IMG/VR virus record: IMGVR_UViG_2778261454_000012
Length of the DNA stretch: 11,516 bases
Reading direction: 5' to 3' (one strand)
From: a virus
Lineage: Duplodnaviria > Heunggongvirae > Uroviricota > Caudoviricetes
A program made the position numbers and the translations under genes. Shown here piece after piece: positions 1 through 11,516 of this stretch. Within the stretch, counting starts at the first letter, position 1; each line of letters starts with the position of its first letter. The notes under the pieces were generated by a model. It was not told the origin of the DNA. It saw only the letters and a list, made by a program, of their open reading frames with translations, and ran no database searches.

Positions 1-443
1 TGAAACGTAAAACACTGCCTCTGCTGGCGCTGGTTGCCACCACTCTGTTTCTCATCGCATGCGATGACAGAAGTGATGACCTGAAGGCCATCAGTAAATT
101 TAAGGACCTCACCCCACCGCGTTTCAGTGATGTGGTCAGCCACCAGGATGATGTCAGCGAAGAATGGTCACAGGTTGACTACTTATCCGGTCCCACCTTG
201 CAGGTTTTACGTACCCGCCAGTCGCCCGATGGCTGCGAGGATGGCAGTTACTACTACCTCGTGGATATGCAGGAAAAAACCGTCCAGCCACTGATGAATG
301 CGCTGTGTATTGCCGATAACATCAAACTGGAATACCAGGAGGTGACGGACCCGTATACCAAAGAAAAATACTTTGAGTACGCCCATGACGGCAAACTGAT
401 GGGGCGACTGCTGATACCCTCAAACCCTGACAATCAGGAATAA
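1..443 (+). CDS. yafY: Inner-membrane lipoprotein, YafY/YfjS family (5' partial: window starts at the 2nd base of the ATG)
   Basis: Frame from position 3 reads KRKTLPLLALVATTLFLIAC-DD and continues into track ORF 132..443. Lipobox LIAC with Asp at +2 is the inner-membrane retention signal (established for YafY/YfjS). Position upstream of the ykfB-ykfF-yafX block matches CP4-6 gene order from memory. Confidence 0.6.
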   Translation, partial: KRKTLPLLALVATTLFLIACDDRSDDLKAISKFKDLTPPRFSDVVSHQDDVSEEWSQVDYLSGPTLQVLRTRQSPDGCEDGSYYYLVDMQEKTVQPLMNALCIADNIKLEYQEVTDPYTKEKYFEYAHDGKLMGRLLIPSNPDNQE

Positions 444-465
444 AACAACGATAAAGGAGACAAGA

Positions 466-933
466 ATGACAATACTTTCACTAAGTCGGTTTATGCTGGC
501 GGGTGTACTGCTCGCGAGCTTTAATGCCTCTGCTATCCCGGGGTTCTGGCAGCAGGGTTACGGTCAGGGCAATACGGAATACAGCGTGACCGAAGCCAGC
601 GGAAAGACGTTTACCATCAACTGCACAGGGAACCCGGACCAGAATGGTTTCTATCAGCATTCAGTCTTTCTTACCCTTGCCGATGACAAGATGGTCAGTT
701 CGCACGATGACGACACTACTATCACCGTAGTGATGGATCACCAGCAGTACATTATTCCGTCCAGCCTGGGCTGGCGTAACGGCGATAACGCCTGGTTTGA
801 CTTCATCAGCAATATCTCTGAGGCCGGGCAGTTCGACGTCTACGTCAATGACCACAAAGCAGGGACCTTCACTGCGGACCGGAAGAACGCTGAGAAAGTT
901 CTGTCCACTCTCGGAGACTGCAGCAACGACTGA
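466..933 (+). CDS. Secreted/periplasmic protein with N-terminal signal peptide (YkfB-like by position)
   Basis: 155-aa ORF. AAGGAG at 454-459, 6 nt before the ATG. N-terminus [23 protein letters not shown] is hydrophobic and signal-peptide-like. Followed by hairpin terminator at 960-994. Confidence 0.6.
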
Positions 934-959
934 TAGTAGCATCTTCCCCAGCAAATCCA

Positions 960-994
960 CCCCGACAGCTAGCAGGCTGCCGGGGTTTTCTTTT
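960..994 (+). terminator. Rho-independent terminator-like hairpin
   Basis: ccccgacagc / gctgccgggg stem (9 of 10 bp) with 6-nt loop, followed by ttttctttt. Confidence 0.5.
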
Positions 995-1009
995 ATCAGG
1001 AGCCCGAAA

Positions 1010-1249
1010 ATGACCCAATCCGTGTTGCTGCCACCGGGGCCTTTCACCCGGAGACAAGCGCAAGCGGTCACTACCACGTACAGCAATATCACACTCGAAG
1101 ACGACCAGGGCAGTCACTTCCGTCTGGTGGTTCGTGATACTGAAGGCCGGATGGTCTGGCGGGCATGGAACTTTGAGCCGGATGCCGGTGAAGGTCTTAA
1201 CCGCTATATCCGCACCTCAGGCATCCGTACAGACACGGCCACCCGCTGA
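1010..1249 (+). CDS. ykfF: DUF905-family small protein (YkfF-like), 79 aa
   Basis: Internal ATG at 1010 preceded by AGGAG (998-1002). Product [20 protein letters not shown]... is 79 aa; the longer track ORF 797..1249 overlaps the upstream gene and is rejected. Gene order matches CP4-6. Confidence 0.6.
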
Positions 1250-1302
1250 TCGCGAAGCATTTACCCGCATTCACCTCCCCGAACACACTTTATATCCCCA
1301 TA

Positions 1303-1328
1303 CGCCAGCCATCGCCGCTGGCGTTTTT
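1303..1328 (+). terminator. Rho-independent terminator-like hairpin
   Basis: cgccagc / gctggcg 7-bp stem, 7-nt loop, then ttttt. Confidence 0.5.
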
Positions 1329-1346
1329 ATTGACGGAGACATACCC

Positions 1347-1805
1347 ATGATAACACAGACGCAGCACGACCTCGCACCCGCTAACCAACCCGAATTTGAA
1401 CTGACCGTCACGCCGGTCCCCGATGAACAGCGTATCGATTTCTGGCCACAGTACTTTGGCGCTATCCCGCAGTGGCTACTCCTGGAGCCGCATATCTTCG
1501 CCTGGATGGACCGCTTCTGTGAGGGCTACAGCGGTGGTATCTGGTCGTTCTACACCCTCAGCAATGGCGGCGCATTTATGTCCCCCGAGCCTGACAACGA
1601 TGAGACATGGCGTCTGTTTAACTGCCTGAACGGTAACGATGCCCAAATGAGTGCAGAAGCAGCAGGTATTGCTGTCTGCCTGATTGCGTATAGCCACCAT
1701 GCCTGCCGTACAGAATGTGACGCGATGACCGCACACTATTACCGCCTGCGGGAGTATGCCATGCAACATCCAGAGGCTCACGCCATTCTGCGTATTATCG
1801 ACTGA
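1347..1805 (+). CDS. yafX: Antirestriction protein, ArdB/KlcA-like (YafX/YfjX/YeeS-type), 152 aa
   Basis: ATG at 1347 with GGAGA 7 nt upstream. Product MITQTQHDLAPANQPEFELTV...EAHAILRIID matches the conserved CP4-type antirestriction protein from memory. The track ORF 1134..1805 N-terminal extension is rejected. Confidence 0.7.
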   Translation: MITQTQHDLAPANQPEFELTVTPVPDEQRIDFWPQYFGAIPQWLLLEPHIFAWMDRFCEGYSGGIWSFYTLSNGGAFMSPEPDNDETWRLFNCLNGNDAQMSAEAAGIAVCLIAYSHHACRTECDAMTAHYYRLREYAMQHPEAHAILRIID

Positions 1806-1820
1806 CCGAAGGAGCAACAG

Positions 1821-2297
1821 ATGAAACAGCTTTCCTTTTTACCCGGCGAGATGACGCCACAGGACCGGCGTCTCATTCAGCGGGCGCTCAGGGCTCTGGA
1901 CCGCCACCTGCATGAGCCCGGCGTAGCCTTCACCTCTACCCACGCCGTACGTGAATGGCTGCGACTGCATATGGCCGCGCTTGAGCGGGAAGAGTTCCGG
2001 GTGTTGTATCTGGACAACCAGAATCAGTTGATTGCCCATGAAACGCTCTTCACCGGCACGATTAACCGCACCGAGGTGCATCCCCGGGAGGTGGTCAAAC
2101 GTGCTCTGCACTTCAACGCGGCGGCGGTGATACTCGCGCATAACCATCCTTCCGGCGAGACGACACCTAGCCAGGCCGACAAAACCCTCACGCAGCGACT
2201 GGTTCAGGTGCTTCAGCTGGTGGATATCCGTGTCCCTGACCATCTGATTGTCGGTGGCAGGCAAATCTATTCGTTCGCAGAACACGGTCTGCTTTGA
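1821..2297 (+). CDS. ykfG: RadC-like JAB-domain protein (YkfG/YfjY/YeeS family), 158 aa
   Basis: AAGGAG RBS before ATG 1821. Contains the JAMM-like motif region ...AAAVILAHNHPSGETTPSQAD... (HNHPSG is the RadC/JAB signature). Confidence 0.75.
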   Translation: MKQLSFLPGEMTPQDRRLIQRALRALDRHLHEPGVAFTSTHAVREWLRLHMAALEREEFRVLYLDNQNQLIAHETLFTGTINRTEVHPREVVKRALHFNAAAVILAHNHPSGETTPSQADKTLTQRLVQVLQLVDIRVPDHLIVGGRQIYSFAEHGLL

Positions 2298-2305
2298 GGT
2301 ATTAC

Positions 2306-2527
2306 ATGAAAATTATCAGTAAACGCAGGGCAATGACGATATACCGCCAGCATCCTGAGTCCCGAATCTTTCGCTACTGCACCGGCAAATACCAGTGGCA
2401 CGGTAGCGTCTGTCATTACACCGGCAGGGACGTTCCGGATATCGCCGGAGTCCTCGCGGTATACGCCGAACGCCGCCAGGACCGCAATGGGCCCTATACC
2501 TGCCTGATGAGCATCACCCTGAACTGA
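2306..2527 (+). CDS. ykfH: DUF987-family small protein (YkfH/YeeT/YfjZ-neighbour type), 73 aa
   Basis: Internal ATG at 2306 gives MKIISKRRAMTIYRQHPESRIFRYCTGKYQWHG..., 73 aa, with GAGG upstream. Conserved partner immediately upstream of the CbeA-type antitoxin. Confidence 0.6.
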   Translation: MKIISKRRAMTIYRQHPESRIFRYCTGKYQWHGSVCHYTGRDVPDIAGVLAVYAERRQDRNGPYTCLMSITLN

Positions 2528-2545
2528 CAATAGTGGAGAACTGTA

Positions 2546-3225
<680 letters not shown>

Positions 3226-3290
3226 ACATTGCGTACAACCTTCCCGATTTACATTTCTGAACTTCCTCCCTTGTTTACCTATTGCGTAAT

Positions 3291-3326
3291 GCGCCTGCTA
3301 CTACCCGGCAGGCGCGTTATCTTTTT
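3291..3326 (+). terminator. Rho-independent terminator downstream of the toxin gene
   Basis: gcgcctgc / gcaggcgc perfect 8-bp stem, 9-nt loop, followed by gttatcttttt. Confidence 0.6.
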
Positions 3327-3596
3327 ACGGACAAACAATCATGCAACCAGAAGTTGAAGTATTAACCGATCATAATGAGCTAATTTGTTCGAGCTTTATT
3401 GAACACATTGCCAACACATTAAATTTAGGAGTGGTGTACAACTAAACCTGCAGCCAAGGATGTATAGTGAGCGAAGCCCTATCAGGCCTTTTTGGTCAGT
3501 AGATAAGATTGATCTTCGTTGATAGAATTTACTTACACCAGCTGTTACATTAAGATAATTTTTTGGTGGGAGAATGATAAGATCTTACGTAACAAT

Positions 3597-3652
3597 TTGA
3601 TTTTAATGGTGCCGATAATAGGAGTCGAACCTACGACCTTCGCATTACGAAT
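3597..3652 (-). repeat. att-type direct repeat: partial copy of the thrW 3' part (46 nt of tRNA from the anticodon loop to CCA, plus 10 bp of flank)
   Basis: 3597-3652 matches 10063-10118 with one mismatch (3604 t vs 10070 a). Identity stops exactly at attacgaat (anticodon loop). Sequence diverges on both sides. Confidence 0.85.
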
Positions 3653-3843
3653 CTGTAGCACCAATCATAACTATCTGTTTTAGCAAGCATTAACCGCATT
3701 CACTAAGCTATAGTTGATGGCACAAACAGAAAGTTGATGCATGATGTTGTCATGTATATGTCACAAATACGGCACAACGATCTTCAAACATGTAGCCACA
3801 CATCCACAGAAGAGCACAAAGCCTTGCAATCCAGTGCAACGCT

Positions 3844-4071
3844 TTGTGTACCATAGTTTTTCCTTATCAACTACCGCAAGTATCGATCGATGGAGGCTTG
3901 GATGTTAAATTTCATGACTTTGATCACTTGGTGCATCACGAAACTATCGAAGTGCAACTCGCTCATGCCAACGGCGGATCTGTGCGTGGGATTTACAACC
4001 ATGCTCAGTATCTCGATAAGCGCAGAGAAATGATGCAGTGGTGGGCGGATTGGATTGATGAGAAGGCGTGA
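3844..4071 (+). pseudogene. C-terminal fragment of a P4-family tyrosine integrase (remnant)
   Basis: Translation ...KFHDFDHLVHHETIEVQLAHANGGSVRGIYNHAQYLDKRREMMQWWADWIDEKA carries the P4-type C-terminal signature (E-x-x-LAH...VRG-x-YN-x-x-Y...RR-x-MMQ-x-WAD). The frame is open only from 3796 (TAG at 3793-3795); track start is a TTG. The N-terminal ~300 aa are absent. Confidence 0.6.
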
Positions 4072-4165
4072 TGCTTTCCATCTTTCCATTCGGATTCCTC
4101 CTACCAGGCTTGCCGGTATGGTGATATAGTTAATGTTTTACTTTTTATAGTTTATAGATAAACAG

Positions 4166-5215
4166 ATGAAAAATAATAGCATCCAGATAGCAAGGGCGAT
4201 TGCCGCGTTACTTGTAGTGTTTCACCATTTGTTTATACCAATATTCCATAGAGATAATGCCTACACAGATTATCTGAAGCATTTTAATTTTAGCTTCATC
4301 GGTGATTATGCCGTTTATGTTTTTTTCTGTATAAGCGGTTACGTAATGATGATGTCAACGACAAAAAAGCATAAAGGATCGATATCTTTCCTGAGTGACA
4401 GAATATTAAGAATCTATCCTTCGTATATTATATGGACAGTTATCGCCATTGCTTTAGTATACATTGGCAGAGTAATTGGCTATGAAATTGTTAGATTTAA
4501 AAATATTCCTCATAATGTTGTGGATATGATTCAGGTATTGCTTTTGTTGCCTTCTATTTCTGACCACAGCAACTACGCCATGACTTTGCCAACAGCATGG
4601 TCACTTGTGTATGAAATGTATTACTACGTTGTATTTGCTCTATTACTTAAATTTATTAGTGTTCGTAATATCCCGTATGCTCTCATGGGTATATTTGCTT
4701 TATCTTCGTTTGTTATTAACTCAAACTTCCCTCAGGGTAGGTACGGTTGGGTGAATTTATGGTACATTATTGGGGACTATGCGAATATATGTTTTGCATC
4801 GGGGGCGCTGATATATAACATAACAAACAACATCAATAATCCAATAAAATACAAACACCTCCCAATTGCGATTGTATTATTATTTGCGGTATTGCTATCT
4901 TCCAATAACGGCTCACTATACCAAATAAATATAATCATGATGTCAATTACAACGTTCATTTTATTTCTTTTTAGTGACTTTGGGAGTGGTGTGCTTTCTA
5001 GATGTTTTTCATATATCGGTGATGCATCGTATAGTATATACATAACCCACATGCTATTTAATTTAGCGGCTTGGAATTCTTGGACTCAGTATAGCAGTTT
5101 GGTTGGTGCCTTTGGAATTTCTATAACATCAATAGTATTTGGGATTATAGCTTACGAATTCCTTGAAAAACCATTAACGATGGCGTCCAGAACTTTAAAG
5201 CAAAGAGTTGCTTAA
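4166..5215 (+). CDS. Acyltransferase-3 family integral membrane protein, O-antigen/LPS O-acetyltransferase-like (Oac/OafA-type)
   Basis: 349 aa, many hydrophobic segments. N-terminal IARAIAALLVVFHH and RILRIYPSYIIW motifs are typical of the AT3 family. Strongly AT-rich. Convergent with the tailspike-like gene, next to the att repeat, as in Sf6-type conversion modules. Confidence 0.7.
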   Translation: MKNNSIQIARAIAALLVVFHHLFIPIFHRDNAYTDYLKHFNFSFIGDYAVYVFFCISGYVMMMSTTKKHKGSISFLSDRILRIYPSYIIWTVIAIALVYIGRVIGYEIVRFKNIPHNVVDMIQVLLLLPSISDHSNYAMTLPTAWSLVYEMYYYVVFALLLKFISVRNIPYALMGIFALSSFVINSNFPQGRYGWVNLWYIIGDYANICFASGALIYNITNNINNPIKYKHLPIAIVLLFAVLLSSNNGSLYQINIIMMSITTFILFLFSDFGSGVLSRCFSYIGDASYSIYITHMLFNLAAWNSWTQYSSLVGAFGISITSIVFGIIAYEFLEKPLTMASRTLKQRVA

Positions 5216-5218
5216 GAT

Positions 5219-5240
5219 AAAGGGCGCAAACGCGCCCTTT
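5219..5240. terminator. Bidirectional rho-independent terminator between the convergent genes
   Basis: aaagggcgc / gcgcccttt perfect 9-bp stem with aaac loop, A-run on the left and tttattattt on the right. Confidence 0.75.
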
Positions 5241-5245
5241 ATTAT

Positions 5246-7210
5246 TTAGGGGTTTCTGACCTGCCATACTTTGTCATAGCCGTGCGTATACCCACATCGT
5301 GTAACGGTTAGGTGTACTATTGCCATTGATAGAGTAGGCGTATCAAACCGGAAGCGAATATACGTCCCTCCGTTTACTACCTGCTTTACAACGTTAATTC
5401 CTGTTAGATTTTTGTCTCCTGGATCATAATTTGTCCATATATTGCCTGCTGAGGATATATCTGATTGCGTTGTACCAGAAACAGTTGCCAGAATCCTGCC
5501 ACCGGAACCTGATGATGTAACCCCGGATTTTCCAACAGGAAAAATGATTGCTTCCACGCATAAAAAATTCCCGCCAGGCGTCTTGGTTTCCTCCCCCACT
5601 GCGGTAAGGAAAACATCAAGTGATGCACCATATGGAACGATAACCGTCCCCTTGTCTGTAGATACATTGTTAAAAACAGCATTACTGTTGTAGTTTACTG
5701 CCGAAAGAACAGCCCCAATTCTGTTATTAGATATGCTATTTGAGGATTCAGTTCCGTACCACCTTCCATTTATTTTTACGCTTTGCGCCTTGGTAGAGTT
5801 CATTTTAGATGCAGTTACCGAGCTAACAAATCTAAATGTATCCTTGATCTCAAAACCACGGCATTGATTAATGTTGCTGTCGTTGCTATTGACAAAGAAC
5901 TGTACCGCCCTATCGGTCTTTATCATCCCTGTTTGGAATACTGCCATTCCTAATACGTTTGTTGCATTGTCAGGAGTTTTAACCACGGATGTTACTGTTG
6001 AGTCTCGTGTAGTCTGAATCCAACAATCAACAGCATCAAAATATATAGCAGATCGTTCAGTTTCAGCAAATGGTGAGAAATCAAATAACGTATCACCCCT
6101 AACCCCTTCAATACCTAATCCAGTTATTTTTAAATCTCTCCCCCTGTAAAATTTGTGTGGGGTAATACACATATCTGCGGCAATATTATTTGCCGCAACG
6201 TACATCAATACCTCATCATCTGAGAATGCGGGAATTTTTGATACCCTATCATAGGTTGCTCCCCAACAAAAACCGACTCCGCATCTTAATGCCCACGCAG
6301 CTGATAGATTTATAGATGTTGCAACTAGGGTCATGCCAAAGTTGCATGAATACATGAATACTCTGTCGCTTTCAGATACGAAACATGACAATGCCAGACC
6401 AACATTGTATCTCATGAGGTTTACATTGTTTATTTTATATTGCTGCCCACCTCCGGAAGGTTGCCCTAACTCTGAGTTACCTGAAATTACTAGAGGGCAG
6501 CCAACAGTTTCCTCATCGGCATTAACAAAGCCAATGTTTTCAACCAATAATTCATGACACCATGTTGCACAGAAGAAACCGCCGTCTCCGGATGTGTATA
6601 TTACTGAGTGGAGCGGGTTTGTGCCGAAAATATTTAACGAGTACCCATCCCATCTTTTCGCAGTAATATCAATTGAGGTATCGCCAATATACATAGGGCT
6701 ATCAATAAAGATTGGCATGTATGTATTATAGGCCGCAATCAATGCTGCGCTGTCGTTTGTTACCCCAGTCAGGTCAGGCCTAGGCATATCCGTGTCGTGA
6801 TTAATATCATGAACATCAACTTTTGGCGCATCCATCCACGCGCCAAACATACGAGGTGTTACGTACCCCTTCCCTTGCAGATCTCGTTTCCAGCGTTTAC
6901 CACCCGCAGTGACAATGACCATGCCGTTATCATCTGCAGAAGTCGAATCTGTGAAATCGGCCACAAACAGACCACCACCAGTATCACCTGATACTGTCGG
7001 CTTCATGCCTGTAGTGTGGAAGTCGACGAAAATCTTTTGCTGATCTCGCTCAGGCTCAATTGTCCTTAACATTGCTATATCAGGGCATGTCCCGATGTAT
7101 TTAAGACCGTCTTCATTGCCGTCCCATAAAGGAGGTGATGCGGATGTTTTTCTTTTATCGCTACTTGTAACATCAGGAATAGCGATTACTTCTATTGTTG
7201 TTTTCTTCAA
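5246..7210 (-). CDS. Tailspike-like right-handed beta-helix protein (putative polysaccharide depolymerase/receptor-binding protein), 654 aa; start uncertain
   Basis: Long clean ORF. Around residues 115-150, GYVTPRMFGA...LTGVTNDSAALIAAYN resembles the pectate-lyase-fold entry motif (FGA...G-x-TDD-x-AA). Many Asn/Gly-rich repeats downstream. Position and orientation match a P22/Sf6 tailspike. The only start at the ORF head is TTG at 7208-7210, with no Shine-Dalgarno and a stop just upstream. Confidence 0.5.
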   Translation of the reverse strand: MKKTTIEVIAIPDVTSSDKRKTSASPPLWDGNEDGLKYIGTCPDIAMLRTIEPERDQQKIFVDFHTTGMKPTVSGDTGGGLFVADFTDSTSADDNGMVIVTAGGKRWKRDLQGKGYVTPRMFGAWMDAPKVDVHDINHDTDMPRPDLTGVTNDSAALIAAYNTYMPIFIDSPMYIGDTSIDITAKRWDGYSLNIFGTNPLHSVIYTSGDGGFFCATWCHELLVENIGFVNADEETVGCPLVISGNSELGQPSGGGQQYKINNVNLMRYNVGLALSCFVSESDRVFMYSCNFGMTLVATSINLSAAWALRCGVGFCWGATYDRVSKIPAFSDDEVLMYVAANNIAADMCITPHKFYRGRDLKITGLGIEGVRGDTLFDFSPFAETERSAIYFDAVDCWIQTTRDSTVTSVVKTPDNATNVLGMAVFQTGMIKTDRAVQFFVNSNDSNINQCRGFEIKDTFRFVSSVTASKMNSTKAQSVKINGRWYGTESSNSISNNRIGAVLSAVNYNSNAVFNNVSTDKGTVIVPYGASLDVFLTAVGEETKTPGGNFLCVEAIIFPVGKSGVTSSGSGGRILATVSGTTQSDISSAGNIWTNYDPGDKNLTGINVVKQVVNGGTYIRFRFDTPTLSMAIVHLTVTRCGYTHGYDKVWQVRNP

Positions 7211-7290
7211 TTATTTCGACTGGCTGAAAATCTGGCTTGCTCCAAAACTTTACCTTATCGAATATGCAGCATCATTGGTTAAGTAATTTC

Positions 7291-7316
7291 AGGCCGCATA
7301 GTCGGCCTTCATTTTT
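7291..7316 (+). terminator. Terminator-like hairpin (plus orientation) in the junction region
   Basis: aggccg / cggcct 6-bp stem, 6-nt loop catagt, then tcattttt. Confidence 0.4.
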
Positions 7317-7345
7317 GGCATAAACAACAGAATAAACACTGCACT

Positions 7346-7373
7346 GTGTATTCATTCCAACGAGTGAATACAC
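7346..7373. promoter_or_regulatory. Perfect 9-bp inverted repeat (gtgtattca N10 tgaatacac), candidate operator or RNA hairpin
   Basis: Read directly: 7346-7354 is the reverse complement of 7365-7373. Lies about 100 bp upstream of the ATG at 7475. Confidence 0.35.
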
Positions 7374-7474
7374 GGAGCAATGTCGCTCGTAACTAAACAG
7401 GAGCCGACTTGTTCTGATTATTGGAAATCTTCTTTGCCCTCCAGTGTGAGGTCAATTTTTTTGACGGAGGATAT

Positions 7475-8443
7475 ATGAGTGAAGTAACAGATTTAGTTGT
7501 TATTGAAAAAGCAAATGCAATGACTGTATTTCAGTCTGCCGACCAGATTGAAGAAATCCTTCAAAAGGTTGAACGTGAAGTTATGTCCTTTGTGCCTGAT
7601 ATCACAACGGCAAAGGGCAGAAAGGAGATCGCTTCTCTGGCGTATAAAGTTGCGCAGACGAAAACATATCTCGATGGCCTTGGCAAAGACCTTGTTGCTG
7701 AACTGAAGGAAATTCCAAAGCTAATTGATGCCAACCGCAAGACAGTACGCGATCGCCTTGATGAACTGAAAGCCAAGGCGCGCCAGCCTCTTACTGATTA
7801 TGAGGAAGAACAGGCGCGGATTAAAGCCGAAGAAGAAGCTAAGGCAGCAGCTGAAGCTCTCGCAAAGCAAATTGAGTCTGACCATGAAATAGCGATTTTG
7901 ATGGATCGCGAATTTGACCGCCAAAGAGAAGAGGCAAGACTCAAAGCGGAGCAGGAAAAGCGAGAGCATGAAGAACGCTTAAAAAGAGAAGCTGAAGAGA
8001 AAGCCAGAGCAGAAGCCGAAGCAAAGGCAAAAGCCGAAATTGAAGCAGCAGCAAGGCGAGAAGCAGAAGCTAAGGCAGCAGCGGAACGTGCAGAGCGTGA
8101 ACGCATTGAAGCTGAGCAACGAGCACAGCGCGAAGCAAAAGAGGCAGCAGAACGAGCTGAAAGAGAAAAGCAGGCGGCAATTGAAGCAGAACGCCGAAAA
8201 GCACAGGAGGAGGCTGAACGAATCCGGCGCGAGGCTGAAGCAAAAGAGCAAGCCAGAATAGCAGAAGAAAAAAGAATCAAGGACGAAGAAGAGCGTAGAG
8301 CAAAGGATAAAGCTCACCGGAAAGAAGTAAATAACAAAATACTTGCTGACCTTATCAAGGTTGGCGCATCAGAAGATGTTGCTAAAAATATCATAACAGC
8401 CATCGTAAAAGGCGAAGTATTCGCAACAAAAATAACCTACTAA
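7475..8443 (+). CDS. Phage early-region protein with a long ER/K-rich charged alpha-helical (coiled-coil or single-alpha-helix) segment, 322 aa
   Basis: ATG at 7475 with GGAGG (7466-7470). N-terminal domain MSEVTDLVVIEK...; central ~150 aa is almost only E/A/K/R/Q in heptad-like repeats (AEEKARAEAEAKAKAEIEAAARREAEAKAAAERAERER...); short C-terminal domain. The upstream 18 codons of track ORF 7421 begin with TTG and are rejected. Confidence 0.65.
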   Translation: MSEVTDLVVIEKANAMTVFQSADQIEEILQKVEREVMSFVPDITTAKGRKEIASLAYKVAQTKTYLDGLGKDLVAELKEIPKLIDANRKTVRDRLDELKAKARQPLTDYEEEQARIKAEEEAKAAAEALAKQIESDHEIAILMDREFDRQREEARLKAEQEKREHEERLKREAEEKARAEAEAKAKAEIEAAARREAEAKAAAERAERERIEAEQRAQREAKEAAERAEREKQAAIEAERRKAQEEAERIRREAEAKEQARIAEEKRIKDEEERRAKDKAHRKEVNNKILADLIKVGASEDVAKNIITAIVKGEVFATKITY

Positions 8444-8467
8444 TAAAACCAACATAAGGAACCACCC

Positions 8468-8599
8468 ATGATTCACGCAATCGCGGGAGGCGCTCGCATG
8501 GGTGCCTTCCAACTAAATGAATCTTTACTTGAACGAATCACCCGTAAATTACGTGACGGATGGAAAAGAGTTGAGGTCTTATTATGCGCAATGAAATAG
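8468..8599 (+). CDS. Small hypothetical early protein, 43 aa
   Basis: ATG at 8468 with AAGGA 8 nt upstream. MIHAIAGGARMGAFQLNESLLERITRKLRDGWKRVEVLLCAMK. Overlaps the next ORF. Confidence 0.35.
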   Translation: MIHAIAGGARMGAFQLNESLLERITRKLRDGWKRVEVLLCAMK

Positions 8600-8736
8600 C
8601 CATCAATCACCAGATGCTTCGTGCAGCACAGAACAAAGCAGTAATAGCCAGATTTATTGGTGATTCAAAAATGTGGATTGAAGCAAATAAAGCGATGAAA
8701 TCAGCTATCAACCTTCCGTGGTATCGCAGGAAATGA
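8584..8736 (+). CDS. Small hypothetical early protein, 50 aa
   Basis: ATG at 8584 with GAGG upstream. MRNEIAINHQMLRAAQNKAVIARFIGDSKMWIEANKAMKSAINLPWYRRK. Stop overlaps the next start (ATGA). Confidence 0.4.
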   Translation: MRNEIAINHQMLRAAQNKAVIARFIGDSKMWIEANKAMKSAINLPWYRRK

Positions 8737-8891
8737 GTTTTACAGATAACTGGTCAGACGAAGAATTCATTCGTCAGATGAAAGAATTAATCGGTAACGA
8801 AGGAGATATTCATGTCACTTGCAACCACAGTGAAGGAGAGCAAGTTACAGAGACGCATGTACACGCAGAAAGCTCTCTGGTATCGCCATAA
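8733..8891 (+). CDS. Small hypothetical early protein, 52 aa, acidic
   Basis: ATGA overlap with the preceding ORF (translational coupling). MSFTDNWSDEEFIRQMKELIGNEGDIHVTCNHSEGEQ.... Overlaps the 8812 ORF in another frame, so one of the two may be spurious. Confidence 0.3.
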   Translation: MSFTDNWSDEEFIRQMKELIGNEGDIHVTCNHSEGEQVTETHVHAESSLVSP

Positions 8892-8982
8892 TGGCGACCG
8901 CGAAGGAATGCGGGTATGCCTTAATTTGTCCCGAGTCGAAGTATTAAATCAGCGTTATTTCCTTGGGCCGTGTCCATTCTGA
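8812..8982 (+). CDS. Small hypothetical early protein, 56 aa
   Basis: ATG at 8812 with AGGAG 6 nt upstream. MSLATTVKESKLQRRMYTQKALWYRHNGDREGMRVCLNLSRVEVLNQRYFLGPCPF. Ends 8 nt before the next gene. Confidence 0.45.
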   Translation: MSLATTVKESKLQRRMYTQKALWYRHNGDREGMRVCLNLSRVEVLNQRYFLGPCPF

Positions 8983-8990
8983 GGTGAATT

Positions 8991-9698
8991 ATGGATTTGA
9001 ACAAATTCGATGAGCCATTCAGCCCTGAAGATATCGAATGGCGAATACAGCAAAGCGGTAAAACACGCGATGGCAAGGTGTGGGCTATGGTGCTGGCTTA
9101 TGTCACGAACAGGGCAATCATGAAACGCCTGGACGATGTTTGCGGCAAAGCAGGATGGCGCAATGAATACCGCGATATTCCCAACAACGGCGGCGTTGAA
9201 TGCGGCATATCAATCAGGATTGATTCCGAATGGGTAACCAAATGGGATGCTGCTGAAAACACGCAGGTAGAAGCCGTCAAAGGTGGTCGTTCCGGTGCAA
9301 TGAAGCGCGCTGCCGTTCAGTGGGGAATCGGTCGGTATCTGTATAACATTGAGGAAGGTTTCGCACAAACATCTCTCGATAAAAAGCAGGGATGGCACAG
9401 GGCAAAACTCAAGGATGGAACAGGATTTTACTGGCTCCCTCCATCGCTGCCGGGATGGGCAATCCCAGCATCAGATAACAAACCATCACCAGAAAATACC
9501 AACCAGAAATCTCCATCGGTTGACTGCGAGCAAATCCTGAAAGACTTCAGCGATTATGCGTCAACAGAAACTGACAAGAAAAAACTCATCGAGCGTTATC
9601 AGCGTGACTGGCAATTAATGGCTGGCAACGAGGAGGCGCAGGCTAAATGCGTTCAGGTAATGAACATCAGAGTTAACGAACTAAAACAGGCGGCATAA
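8991..9698 (+). CDS. Single-strand annealing protein, Rad52/Rad22 (Sak-like) family, 235 aa
   Basis: GAGGTG RBS. Contains ...GVECGISIRIDSEW...KGGRSGAMKRAAVQWGIGRYLYN..., the Rad52/22-type GIGRYLY signature. Followed directly (TAAATG) by an ssb start. Confidence 0.7.
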   Translation: MDLNKFDEPFSPEDIEWRIQQSGKTRDGKVWAMVLAYVTNRAIMKRLDDVCGKAGWRNEYRDIPNNGGVECGISIRIDSEWVTKWDAAENTQVEAVKGGRSGAMKRAAVQWGIGRYLYNIEEGFAQTSLDKKQGWHRAKLKDGTGFYWLPPSLPGWAIPASDNKPSPENTNQKSPSVDCEQILKDFSDYASTETDKKKLIERYQRDWQLMAGNEEAQAKCVQVMNIRVNELKQAA

Positions 9699-10058
9699 AT
9701 GGCAAGCAGAGGCGTAAATAAGGTGATTATCCTTGGTCGGGTAGGACAAGACCCGGAAGTTCGATACTCACCATCAGGAACAGCGTTCGCTAAGGGAGCG
9801 TTAAAGCGGGCAGGCATTAGCAACTTCCGCTTCCATGATCTGAGGCATACCTGGGCAAGCTGGCTGGTTCAGTCCGGTGTCTCTCTTCTTGCACTTAAAG
9901 AGATGGGAGGATGGGAAACTCTCGAAATGGTTCAAAGATACGCCCACCTTTCAGCCGGGCATCTCACCGAGCACGCAAGCAAAATCGATGCGATTATAAG
10001 TCGCAATGGCACAAATACGGCACAAGAGGAGAACGTGGTTTACTTAAATGCTAGGTAA
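9699..10058 (+). pseudogene. In-frame chimera: SSB N-terminus (about 29 aa) fused to C-terminal catalytic segment of a tyrosine integrase (about 90 aa)
   Basis: [29 protein letters not shown] is the canonical SSB N-terminus. From about codon 30 the product reads ...[48 protein letters not shown]..., the box II region (H-x-x-R ... Y) of phage integrases. Ends 14 bp before the thrW 3' end, convergent with it. Confidence 0.75.
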
Positions 10059-10072
10059 CTTATTGATTTAAA

Positions 10073-10148
10073 TGGTGCCGATAATAGGAGTCGAACCTAC
10101 GACCTTCGCATTACGAATGCGCTGCTCTACCAACTGAGCTATATCGGC
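10073..10148 (-). tRNA. thrW: tRNA-Thr (anticodon CGU)
   Basis: Reverse complement reads GCCGATATAGCTCAGTTGGTAGAGCAGCGCATTCGTAATGCGAAGGTCGTAGGTTCGACTCCTATTATCGGCACCA, 76 nt. It has the D-arm GCTCAGTTGGTAGAGC, anticodon loop with CGT, T-arm GGTTCGACTCC and encoded CCA. Confidence 0.95.
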
Positions 10149-10262
10149 CCTGAAAGGACATGTTCACGAACGTGAATCACGGTGGACAAGGTTAAAACTA
10201 ACCGGGCGATGCGTCAATGGCCTTGTGAATCAAATGGCTACTTTTGCATCACCCGGTTTTAT

Positions 10263-11516
10263 TTACGCACGAATGGTGTAATCACCAATGCCGATCCACT
10301 TGTAAGTGGTCAGTGCTTCCAGCCCCATTGGGCCACGCGCGTGGAGTTTTTGTGTGCTTACCGCCACTTCCGCACCCAGACCAAACTGGCCGCCGTCGGT
10401 AAAACGCGTAGAGGCGTTAACGTAAACAGCGGACGAATCCACTTCGTTAACAAAACGCTGGGCGTTGCGCATATCGCGGGTCAGGATCGCATCGGAGTGT
10501 TGTGTGCCGTGTTCACGAATATGGGCGATGGCATCGTCAAGATCGCTGACGATTTTGACGTTCAAATCTAATGACAGAAACTCATCGTCATACTCTTCGG
10601 CTTTAACAGCAACCACCTTCGCAGGGCCTGCCTGCAACTGCGCCAGTGCAGCTGCATCTGCGTGTAATGTCACGCCGCTTTCCGCCATTTGTTTGCTTAA
10701 TGCGGGCAGGAAGCTATCGGCGATGTTTTTATTCACCAGCAACGTTTCAACCGTATTACATGTGCTCGGACGCTGAGTTTTCGCGTTGACGATCACTTTT
10801 AATGCTTCAGCGATCTCTACACTTTCATCAACGTAAATATGGCATACGCCTATACCACCTGTGATCACCGGGATTGTCGACTGTTCACGGCACAGTTTAT
10901 GCAAACCAGCGCCACCACGCGGGATCAGCATGTCGATGTATTTATCCATACGCAGCATTTCACTGACCAGCGCACGGTCAGGATTATCAATCGCCTGCAC
11001 GGCACCCGCCGGTAAGCCGCAGGATTTCAGGGCGTCCTGAATCACCGCCACCGTTGCAGCGTTAGTGCGACACGTTTCTTTGCCACCGCGCAGGATCACC
11101 GCATTACCGGTTTTCAGGCACAGCGAAGCGACATCAACCGTCACGTTCGGGCGCGCTTCATAAATCACGCCAATAACCCCCAGCGGTACGCGACGACGCT
11201 CAAGACGCAGGCCGCTGTCCAGTACGCCGCCATCGATTACCTGCCCCACCGGATCGGCGAGGTTGCACACCTGACGTACATCGTCGGCAATGCCTTTCAG
11301 CCGTGCGGGCGTCAGTGCCAGACGGTCAAGCATCGCTTCGCTAAGGCCATTGGCTCGCGCGTCAGCAACATCCTGGGCGTTAGCGTTGAGGATGATTTCG
11401 CTTTGTGCTTCCAGTTCATCGGCGATTTTTTCCAGCACGCGATTTTTTTCGCGGCTGGAGAGTTGCGCTAATTTATACGAGGCTTGCTTCGCGGCAATGC
11501 CCATTTGTTCCAGCAT
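10263..11516 (-). CDS. proA: Gamma-glutamyl phosphate reductase (proline biosynthesis), 417 aa, complete
   Basis: Translation [38 protein letters not shown]...[12 protein letters not shown] matches E. coli ProA in full. Start codon is the last three bases of the window. Confidence 0.97.

Follow-up and report, generated by a model that had tools for sequence, protein, structure and literature searches.

The sequence considered herein is a stretch of 11,516 nt held as the Caudoviricetes record IMGVR_UViG_2778261454_000012 (at its full length, the window), within which our subject is a minus-strand open reading frame (ORF) at 5246..7210, confirmed by the ORF listing as a real frame of 654 codons. 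Comparison with K-12-like E. coli assigns positions 1-3652 to the end of the CP4-6 island (yafY to ykfI) together with a duplicate of the final 46 nt of thrW, which is followed by an inserted element of 6,399 bp (3653-10051) and then by the chromosomal flank that carries thrW and proA (10052-11516). The ORF belongs to the inserted element and is, with high probability, a 5′-truncated tailspike pseudogene in a heavily deleted P22-like (Lederbergvirus-type) prophage relic at thrW, situated between proA-thrW and CP4-6. What it retains is the rear five-sixths of a tailspike gene; this is an ordinary decaying prophage remnant, and presumably neither a working nor an unusual gene.

The tailspike remnant itself spans 5246..7113 on the minus strand and comprises codons 121-742 of a 742-codon P22-type tailspike, i.e. 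the receptor-binding beta-helix module with the native stop kept. Alignment places residues 33-654 of the ORF upon residues 121-742 of WP_284181087.1, the tailspike of a prophage in E. coli mip270_04, at 100% protein identity. The DNA of the two copies is 99.8% identical, with the three nucleotide differences in the tailspike part all being synonymous. The intact mip270_04 protein (742 aa) bears the Pfam Head_binding domain (PF09008) at residues 1-113 (E 2.3e-67), and a Pfam search does not find this domain on the 654-aa ORF. Set against the features of a functional tailspike, the window copy has the receptor-binding module and lacks both a head-binding domain and a start and ribosome-binding site of its own, as the head-binding domain and linker (codons 1-120), the start codon and the ribosome-binding site are all absent. 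Precomputed annotation adds Phage_tail_beta (PF27114), and the ORF matches phrog_33504 at 8e-157, in addition to tail-fibre and depolymerase PHROGs. The sole match of the Pfam search, DUF2888, is sub-threshold and was set aside as noise. A sequence search of the PDB matches only the first ~90 retained residues (to CBA120 TSP2, 5w6p) and is uninformative for the catalytic part.

The size of related proteins tells a similar story. A database search yielded 25 homologues of 739-1023 aa, with the one exception of a 465-aa partial match, and none among the 25 is natively 608-654 aa long. A recorded N-terminal anchor domain, either PF09008 or PF18668, is present in 17 of the 24 full-length homologues, whilst the other seven have an N-terminal stretch of similar length without a recorded Pfam anchor.

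The breakpoint lies at 7112-7129, inside the ORF and 82-99 nt from its listed start. When the window is aligned with both phage N7 and the intact tailspike, tailspike DNA homology begins at window 7114/7113; from the other side, homology to the early-left operon of N7 and HK633 starts at 9793 and ends at 7126, thereby reaching, on the other strand, 85 nt past the start of the ORF. Read in tailspike sense, the junction is ...CACCTCCT-TTAT-GGGACGGCAATG-AA-GACGGTCTTAAAT..., and between the two blocks of homology sits an island of 12 nt (7114..7125, minus strand), or of 18 nt (7112-7129) with its flanking microhomologies, which is derived from a gp16-like ejection/transglycosylase gene and is bounded by two deletions. 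In intact phages this gene is found upstream of the tailspike. A k-mer search located TTATGGGACGGCAATGAA within the ejection-protein gene, both in a longer form of the relic that is described below (contig L010, 3729-3712) and in the mip270_04 prophage (L003, 4957-4973). The same search ruled out two other origins considered for the 11-12 nt GGGACGGCAAT between the homology blocks, namely untemplated filler and a variant linker of the ancestral tailspike. For GGGACGGCAATGAAGACGGTCTTAAATA, a scan of viral contigs gave no exact match.

Codons 29-32 of the ORF derive from the ejection-gene island. Codons 1-28, the TTG at 7210 among them, read the opposite strand of an ORF35-homologue stub, such that the first 32 codons are not tailspike but chance read-through into foreign DNA. 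A 5′-truncation pseudogene is recognised by homology that sets in partway through a complete gene, with unrelated sequence beyond the breakpoint, and the alignment shows both here. A preliminary description of this DNA had suggested that a deletion endpoint lay in or just upstream of the N-terminal domain, leaving either a 5′-clipped relic or a gene now expressed from a new promoter. The junction is indeed at the 5′ end of the tailspike, but the whole domain and its linker are gone, and the cut falls inside the ORF. The clipped relic is borne out by the correspondence of residues 33-654 to residues 121-742, and the intact P22-like homologue differs from the window in its N-terminus and upstream sequence, in keeping with that view. 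On the plus strand, a chimeric ORF of 63 codons (7095-7286) has its ATG inside tailspike antisense and continues past the junction to the end of the ORF35 homologue, of which it takes in the last 53 codons; this frame was created by the deletion.

The window form is 100% identical to contig NODD01000031.1 of GCA_002518125.1, and is represented in all by two contigs from three samples. As the window sequence comes from a draft assembly contig, and its junction occurs in no complete RefSeq E. coli genome, one might suspect the junction to be an artefact of assembly. This was rejected as vanishingly improbable: the identical junction recurs in an independent Logan assembly of a different run (SRR3993847), and there is no repeat at the join, where the mere 2-4 nt in common with the partner sequences would not suffice to cause a repeat-induced misjoin. 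Furthermore, NCBI, JGI and Logan together supply at least 10 contigs of the related long form, including JAPPYQ010000038.1 of GCA_035826215.1, JGI metagenome 3300056440 and several Logan runs.

Contigs of the long form were traced via the ssb′-′int fusion protein (discussed below) and a 608-aa ORF, the latter being the tailspike call in this form. Four of these contigs (L010, L014, L015 and L017) match the window at 100% identity throughout the shared sequence, which is up to 11.5 kb, and differ from it by an additional 1,000 bp at the junction. The long form occupies the same chromosomal site, has its tailspike already cut at codon 121 and bears the same ssb′-′int fusion. In tailspike sense, its junction region begins with a complete ORF35 homologue (121 aa; L010 4298-4663) and part of the next upstream gene of the early-left (PL) operon, as judged by homology to HK633. 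There follow, in inverted orientation, 292 bp that stem from the 5′ portion of the ejection gene (L010 3727-4018, corresponding to Sf101_0013 nt 255-546), then the last 213 nt of the ejection gene with its TAG stop and 27 nt downstream, and finally the tailspike from within codon 121 onward. Because this inverted piece lies directly beside the sense-oriented 3′ end of the ejection gene, the large deletion must have been a complex inversion-deletion rather than a simple excision.

When 223 bp and 777 bp are taken out of the long form, the window sequence is reconstructed exactly, and the ends of both deletions share microhomology, of 2 nt (AA) for the 223 bp and of 4 nt (TTAT) for the 777 bp. 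As a result, a scenario of two independent deletions that ended near the same tailspike site, through a hotspot or selection, was discarded, since the reconstruction derives the short form from the long one, with the breakpoint inherited. In the proposed course of events, a prophage would first have lost its immunity-to-tail region along with the 5′ end of the tailspike, generating the long relic; in one sub-lineage, replication slippage or illegitimate recombination at AA and TTAT would then have removed the 223 bp and the 777 bp, giving rise to the window form. From parsimony and the prevalence of long-form contigs, we infer that the long form came before the window form. The window would thereby represent a later, and very recent, stage of a decay that had already begun in the long form.

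Spikes of Kuttervirus (CBA120-type TSP2, PDB 5w6p) and Kagunavirus resemble the remnant in that the module, from EDGLKYIG, aligns over its full length at 42-43% identity; unlike the window ORF, which has none, they possess N-terminal anchors of their own (e.g. PF18668). The P0002 spike, encoded on a 44.5-kb contig, likewise has a PF18668 anchor and is 94% identical from EDGLKYIG onward. The cut (codon 121, EDGLKYIG; window 7090-7114) is within 1-2 codons of the point where such differently anchored spikes begin aligning. This may be coincidence, given a single event, or it may be a trace of module exchange.

A P22-like prophage that appears intact, located at argW in E. coli mip270_04, matches window positions 3944-7114 at 99.75% identity; the window has in common with it the tailspike gene from nt 361 through its stop (residues 121-742), the O-acetyltransferase gene downstream of it and the 3′ end of an integrase. 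The last of these is an intS-type (argW) 3′ stub of 128 nt (3944..4071, plus strand) that aligns to positions 9171-9044 of the mip270_04 prophage (L003). The window copy differs from its mip270_04 counterpart in having lost, besides the 5′ part of the tailspike gene, the upstream arc and ejection genes, and in residing at thrW, not argW.

These relationships raise the possibility that the junction is the scar of an illegitimate transplant, in which a 3.2-kb block comprising the tailspike module, the acetyltransferase gene and the integrase stub was brought from an argW-type phage into a thrW prophage in a failed swap of receptor modules. The block (3944-7113) ends on one side in an intS-type stub that is foreign to a thrW phage and on the other at a module boundary, and there is a step in identity at its edge, as the adjoining ejection-gene fragment of the long form (L010 3489-3728) is only 93.75% identical to the mip270_04 prophage. 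This change in identity is, however, equally explained by ordinary mosaicism of an intact ancestor, the junction microhomology amounts to only 2 nt, and no intact thrW phage with or without the block was found for comparison. We thus regard a transplant as unlikely; it would in any case lead to the same outcome, a gene without a head-binding domain or start. Taken together, the argW-type stub within a thrW element and the step in identity indicate either that the ancestor was a mosaic or that the block was transplanted.

With regard to translation of the truncated gene, a TAA at 7213-7211 sits immediately before TTG-7210 in the same frame. For each candidate start, the strength of a Shine-Dalgarno sequence was measured as the energy of the anti-Shine-Dalgarno duplex in the 17 nt upstream. 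The TTG scores +0.1 kcal/mol, and is thus without a Shine-Dalgarno, as originally claimed. Amongst the in-frame ATG codons, ATG-47 (7072) is poor at -3.0 kcal/mol, and ATG-69, ATG-97 and ATG-126 give +0.4, -0.1 and -1.5 kcal/mol, respectively; ATG-121 reaches -6.3 kcal/mol, but from an AGGGG located 15-20 nt upstream, which is too distant to work. By way of reference, true starts in the same window score -9.5 (the 322-aa early gene, 7475) and -9.9 kcal/mol (erf, 8991). The contention that no early in-frame ATG has a good ribosome-binding site therefore holds. Gene callers do not agree on a start, choosing the TTG in the window form (654 aa) and ATG-47 in the long form (608 aa). The TTG is simply the first start-like codon to follow the first in-frame stop, and is accidental.

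A consensus scan of the minus strand between 6600 and 7700, itself crude, gave no match to a sigma-70 promoter, leaving the idea of a gene now expressed from a new promoter unsupported. Moreover, no signal for expression is conserved between the two forms, because the sequences upstream of the cut differ entirely. From the sequence, the remnant would not be expected to be translated to any useful extent.

Several observations nonetheless weigh against a dead gene or the history proposed for it. All 622 retained codons are open, their product is 100% identical to that of the intact gene and there is no decay downstream of the cut. GTG-83 (6964) is preceded by a Shine-Dalgarno-like GGTGGTGG at -9.4 kcal/mol. 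The promoter scan was of a kind that leaves room for read-through or weak promoters, the expression side of the argument being drawn from sequence, and the order of events comes from parsimony and contig numbers, not from a dated phylogeny. As to the first of these points, an undecayed frame is equally expected of a pseudogene if the deletion is recent. As to the second, the GTG-83 score is within chance, because ~3% of random positions score -8 or better and seven candidate starts were examined.

The same observations feed a rival explanation, by which a headless tailspike would still be made from ATG-47 or GTG-83 via a fortuitous or read-through promoter, and would act as a free, non-virion polysaccharide-cleaving enzyme that aids the host, be it by cutting back O-antigen or capsule, whether that of the host or of its competitors, or by preventing superinfection. 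The P22 tailspike without its N-terminal domain (leaving residues 109-666) forms stable, enzymatically active trimers, and because this deleted protein folds and is active, an internally started product could work in principle. The receptor-binding module is entire and identical to that of a working gene, and the cut is close to the natural module boundary, both of which would suit such a role. This rival is nevertheless decidedly improbable, given the lack of a minus-strand promoter match, the poor or chance-level signals at the two proposed starts and the lack of any expression signal common to both forms. With zero divergence between the forms, moreover, an intact frame needs no selection to account for it. 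A truncated pseudogene therefore remains the preferred reading of the ORF.

Beyond the junction, window positions 7126-9793 are 97% identical to positions 27078-24411 of the Lederbergvirus N7, corresponding to its early-left (PL) operon, and are also homologous to Sf6 and HK633. This block contains the 3′ part of N7 ORF35, a 322-aa homologue of ORF34/Sf6 gene 33, cIII, kil, a small ORF, erf and ssb codons 1-31, and its genes read on the plus strand toward thrW, which is a P22-like arrangement. The ORF35-homologue stub (7126..7286, plus strand) consists of the last 53 of 121 codons and belongs to phrog_3054, whose function is unknown. Next to it is an intergenic stretch of the operon (7287..7474, plus strand), in which a terminator scan finds a terminator-like hairpin at 7291-7308 and in which homology to Sf6 24147-24396 reveals the equivalent of two features annotated there, the tL2A terminator and the bsq4 boundary sequence. 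The 322-aa gene (7475..8443, plus strand; phrog_1376) is intact and has a good Shine-Dalgarno; this is the divergent early gene whose ATG bounds the region upstream of the ORF. The 264 bp between the ORF and this gene (7211-7474) had been portrayed as running straight into it. They do end at the ATG of 7475, but are not mere spacer, as they hold the hairpin and ORF35-homologue stub sequence.

Further along, erf (8991..9698, plus strand) is an intact gene for a recombinase of the Rad52/22 family (PF04098, 2e-25), homologous to N7 ORF31. The frames of cIII and kil (8468-8751), like that of erf, are intact on the plus strand, and PL, N, nutL and the repressor are all deleted. These losses leave all three genes, the potentially toxic kil among them, without a known promoter.

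Measured on N7 between the ORF35 breakpoint and tailspike codon 120, the loss at the tailspike junction amounts to 28,640 bp, in good accord with the roughly 30 kb previously supposed to be missing here. This segment runs from immunity through tail genes, and includes ral, N, c2, cro, the replication genes, nin, Q, and the lysis, terminase, head and ejection genes, as well as the immI region.

The borders of the relic are well preserved. A 67-bp att repeat flanks it at 3586-3652 and 10052-10118. On the attR side (3586..3943), the duplicated 3′ part of thrW and a further 21 nt (3586-3652) are followed by an attP arm (3653 to ~3890), and positions 3640-3890 are 95-98% identical to the attP arm of the thrW-integrating lambdoid phages SfX, mEp213 and HK542. 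On the attL side (10052..10148, minus strand), ARAGORN finds an intact tRNA-Thr(CGU) gene, thrW, at 10073-10148, which overlaps the att repeat, and positions 9792-10075 are 98-99.6% identical to the 3′ end of int and attP of SfX, HK75 and mEpX2. Both arms are thus intact and, as both ends of the insert match attP arms of thrW-integrating phages, it is a site-specifically integrated prophage in tandem with CP4-6. The two att copies differ at five positions (92.5% identity). That at 3586-3652 is identical to a K-12-like chromosome (L004, which matches to 3652), and the copy overlapping thrW is the variant, which fits the tRNA gene having been reconstituted with a 3′ end from the phage.

The ssb′-′int in-frame fusion (9699..10058, plus strand) marks a second internal deletion, with its junction at ~9793. 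In this 119-aa ORF, ssb codons 1-31 precede the C-terminal ~86 codons of an integrase of the thrW type; Pfam places SSB on residues 6-32 and Phage_integrase on residues 30-86, and homology to N7 stops at 9793. With the N7 map as a guide, this deletion took the remainder of ssb, the intervening genes abc2 and xis, and most of int. The fusion is emitted as a protein by gene callers in several assemblies.

In sum, 6.4 kb are left of a ~39-kb genome, with the integrase reduced to a C-terminal fragment and with no immunity, replication, lysis, head or tail genes. Att repeats and arms at a tRNA gene, combined with the loss of lytic-cycle and excision genes, are the features of a defective prophage, and the relic shows both. 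The N7/Sf6-type operon, the thrW att repeats and the attP arms of thrW phages also substantiate the earlier supposition of a P22-like prophage at thrW.

Alongside the tailspike remnant, the relic keeps an intact gene of the O-acetyltransferase type (4166..5215, plus strand; 349 aa), with a match to Acyl_transf_3 (PF01757, 1e-30) and phrog_3333, which adjoins the intact tailspike in mip270_04 as well. It has no recognisable Shine-Dalgarno (+0.4 kcal/mol). This is probably an O-antigen-modifying lysogenic-conversion gene of the former phage, and may be the one component of the relic from which the host still benefits. The tailspike remnant probably persists because the deletions are very recent, the two forms showing zero differences across 11.5 kb, and perhaps also on account of this adjoining gene.

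Cryptic lambdoid prophages of E. coli (CP4-6, CPS-53/KpLE1, Rac and DLP12) are located at tRNA genes, have mostly been lost by internal deletions, and leave behind truncated tail or tail-fibre genes and isolated accessory genes, such as those for O-antigen modification. The window relic resembles them in its position at a tRNA gene, in its internal deletions and in the truncated tail gene and acetyltransferase gene that are left; it is distinct from them in being P22-like, in lying in tandem with CP4-6 at thrW and in offering two stages of deletion for direct comparison. It is, therefore, a known kind of object, and only this instance, which none of 5,426 complete RefSeq E. coli genomes carries, is new.

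A more far-reaching possibility is that the headless module beside the O-acetyltransferase gene is translated from an internal start to give a free enzyme of glycan processing, or acts as a chromosomal reservoir of host-range modules for incoming P22-like phages. We consider this very improbable; if the reservoir reading were true, P22-like phages with a conserved head-binding domain would gain a new host-range module by recombination. For purposes of annotation, the predicted protein of 654 aa (or 608 aa) is to be recorded as a 5′-truncated tailspike pseudogene, with the first 32 residues of the 654-aa call being non-tailspike. More broadly, the relic is a clean, small case of stepwise prophage decay, in which two forms stand two microhomology-bounded deletions apart, and it reveals how a 12-nt island resembling filler can originate at a junction.

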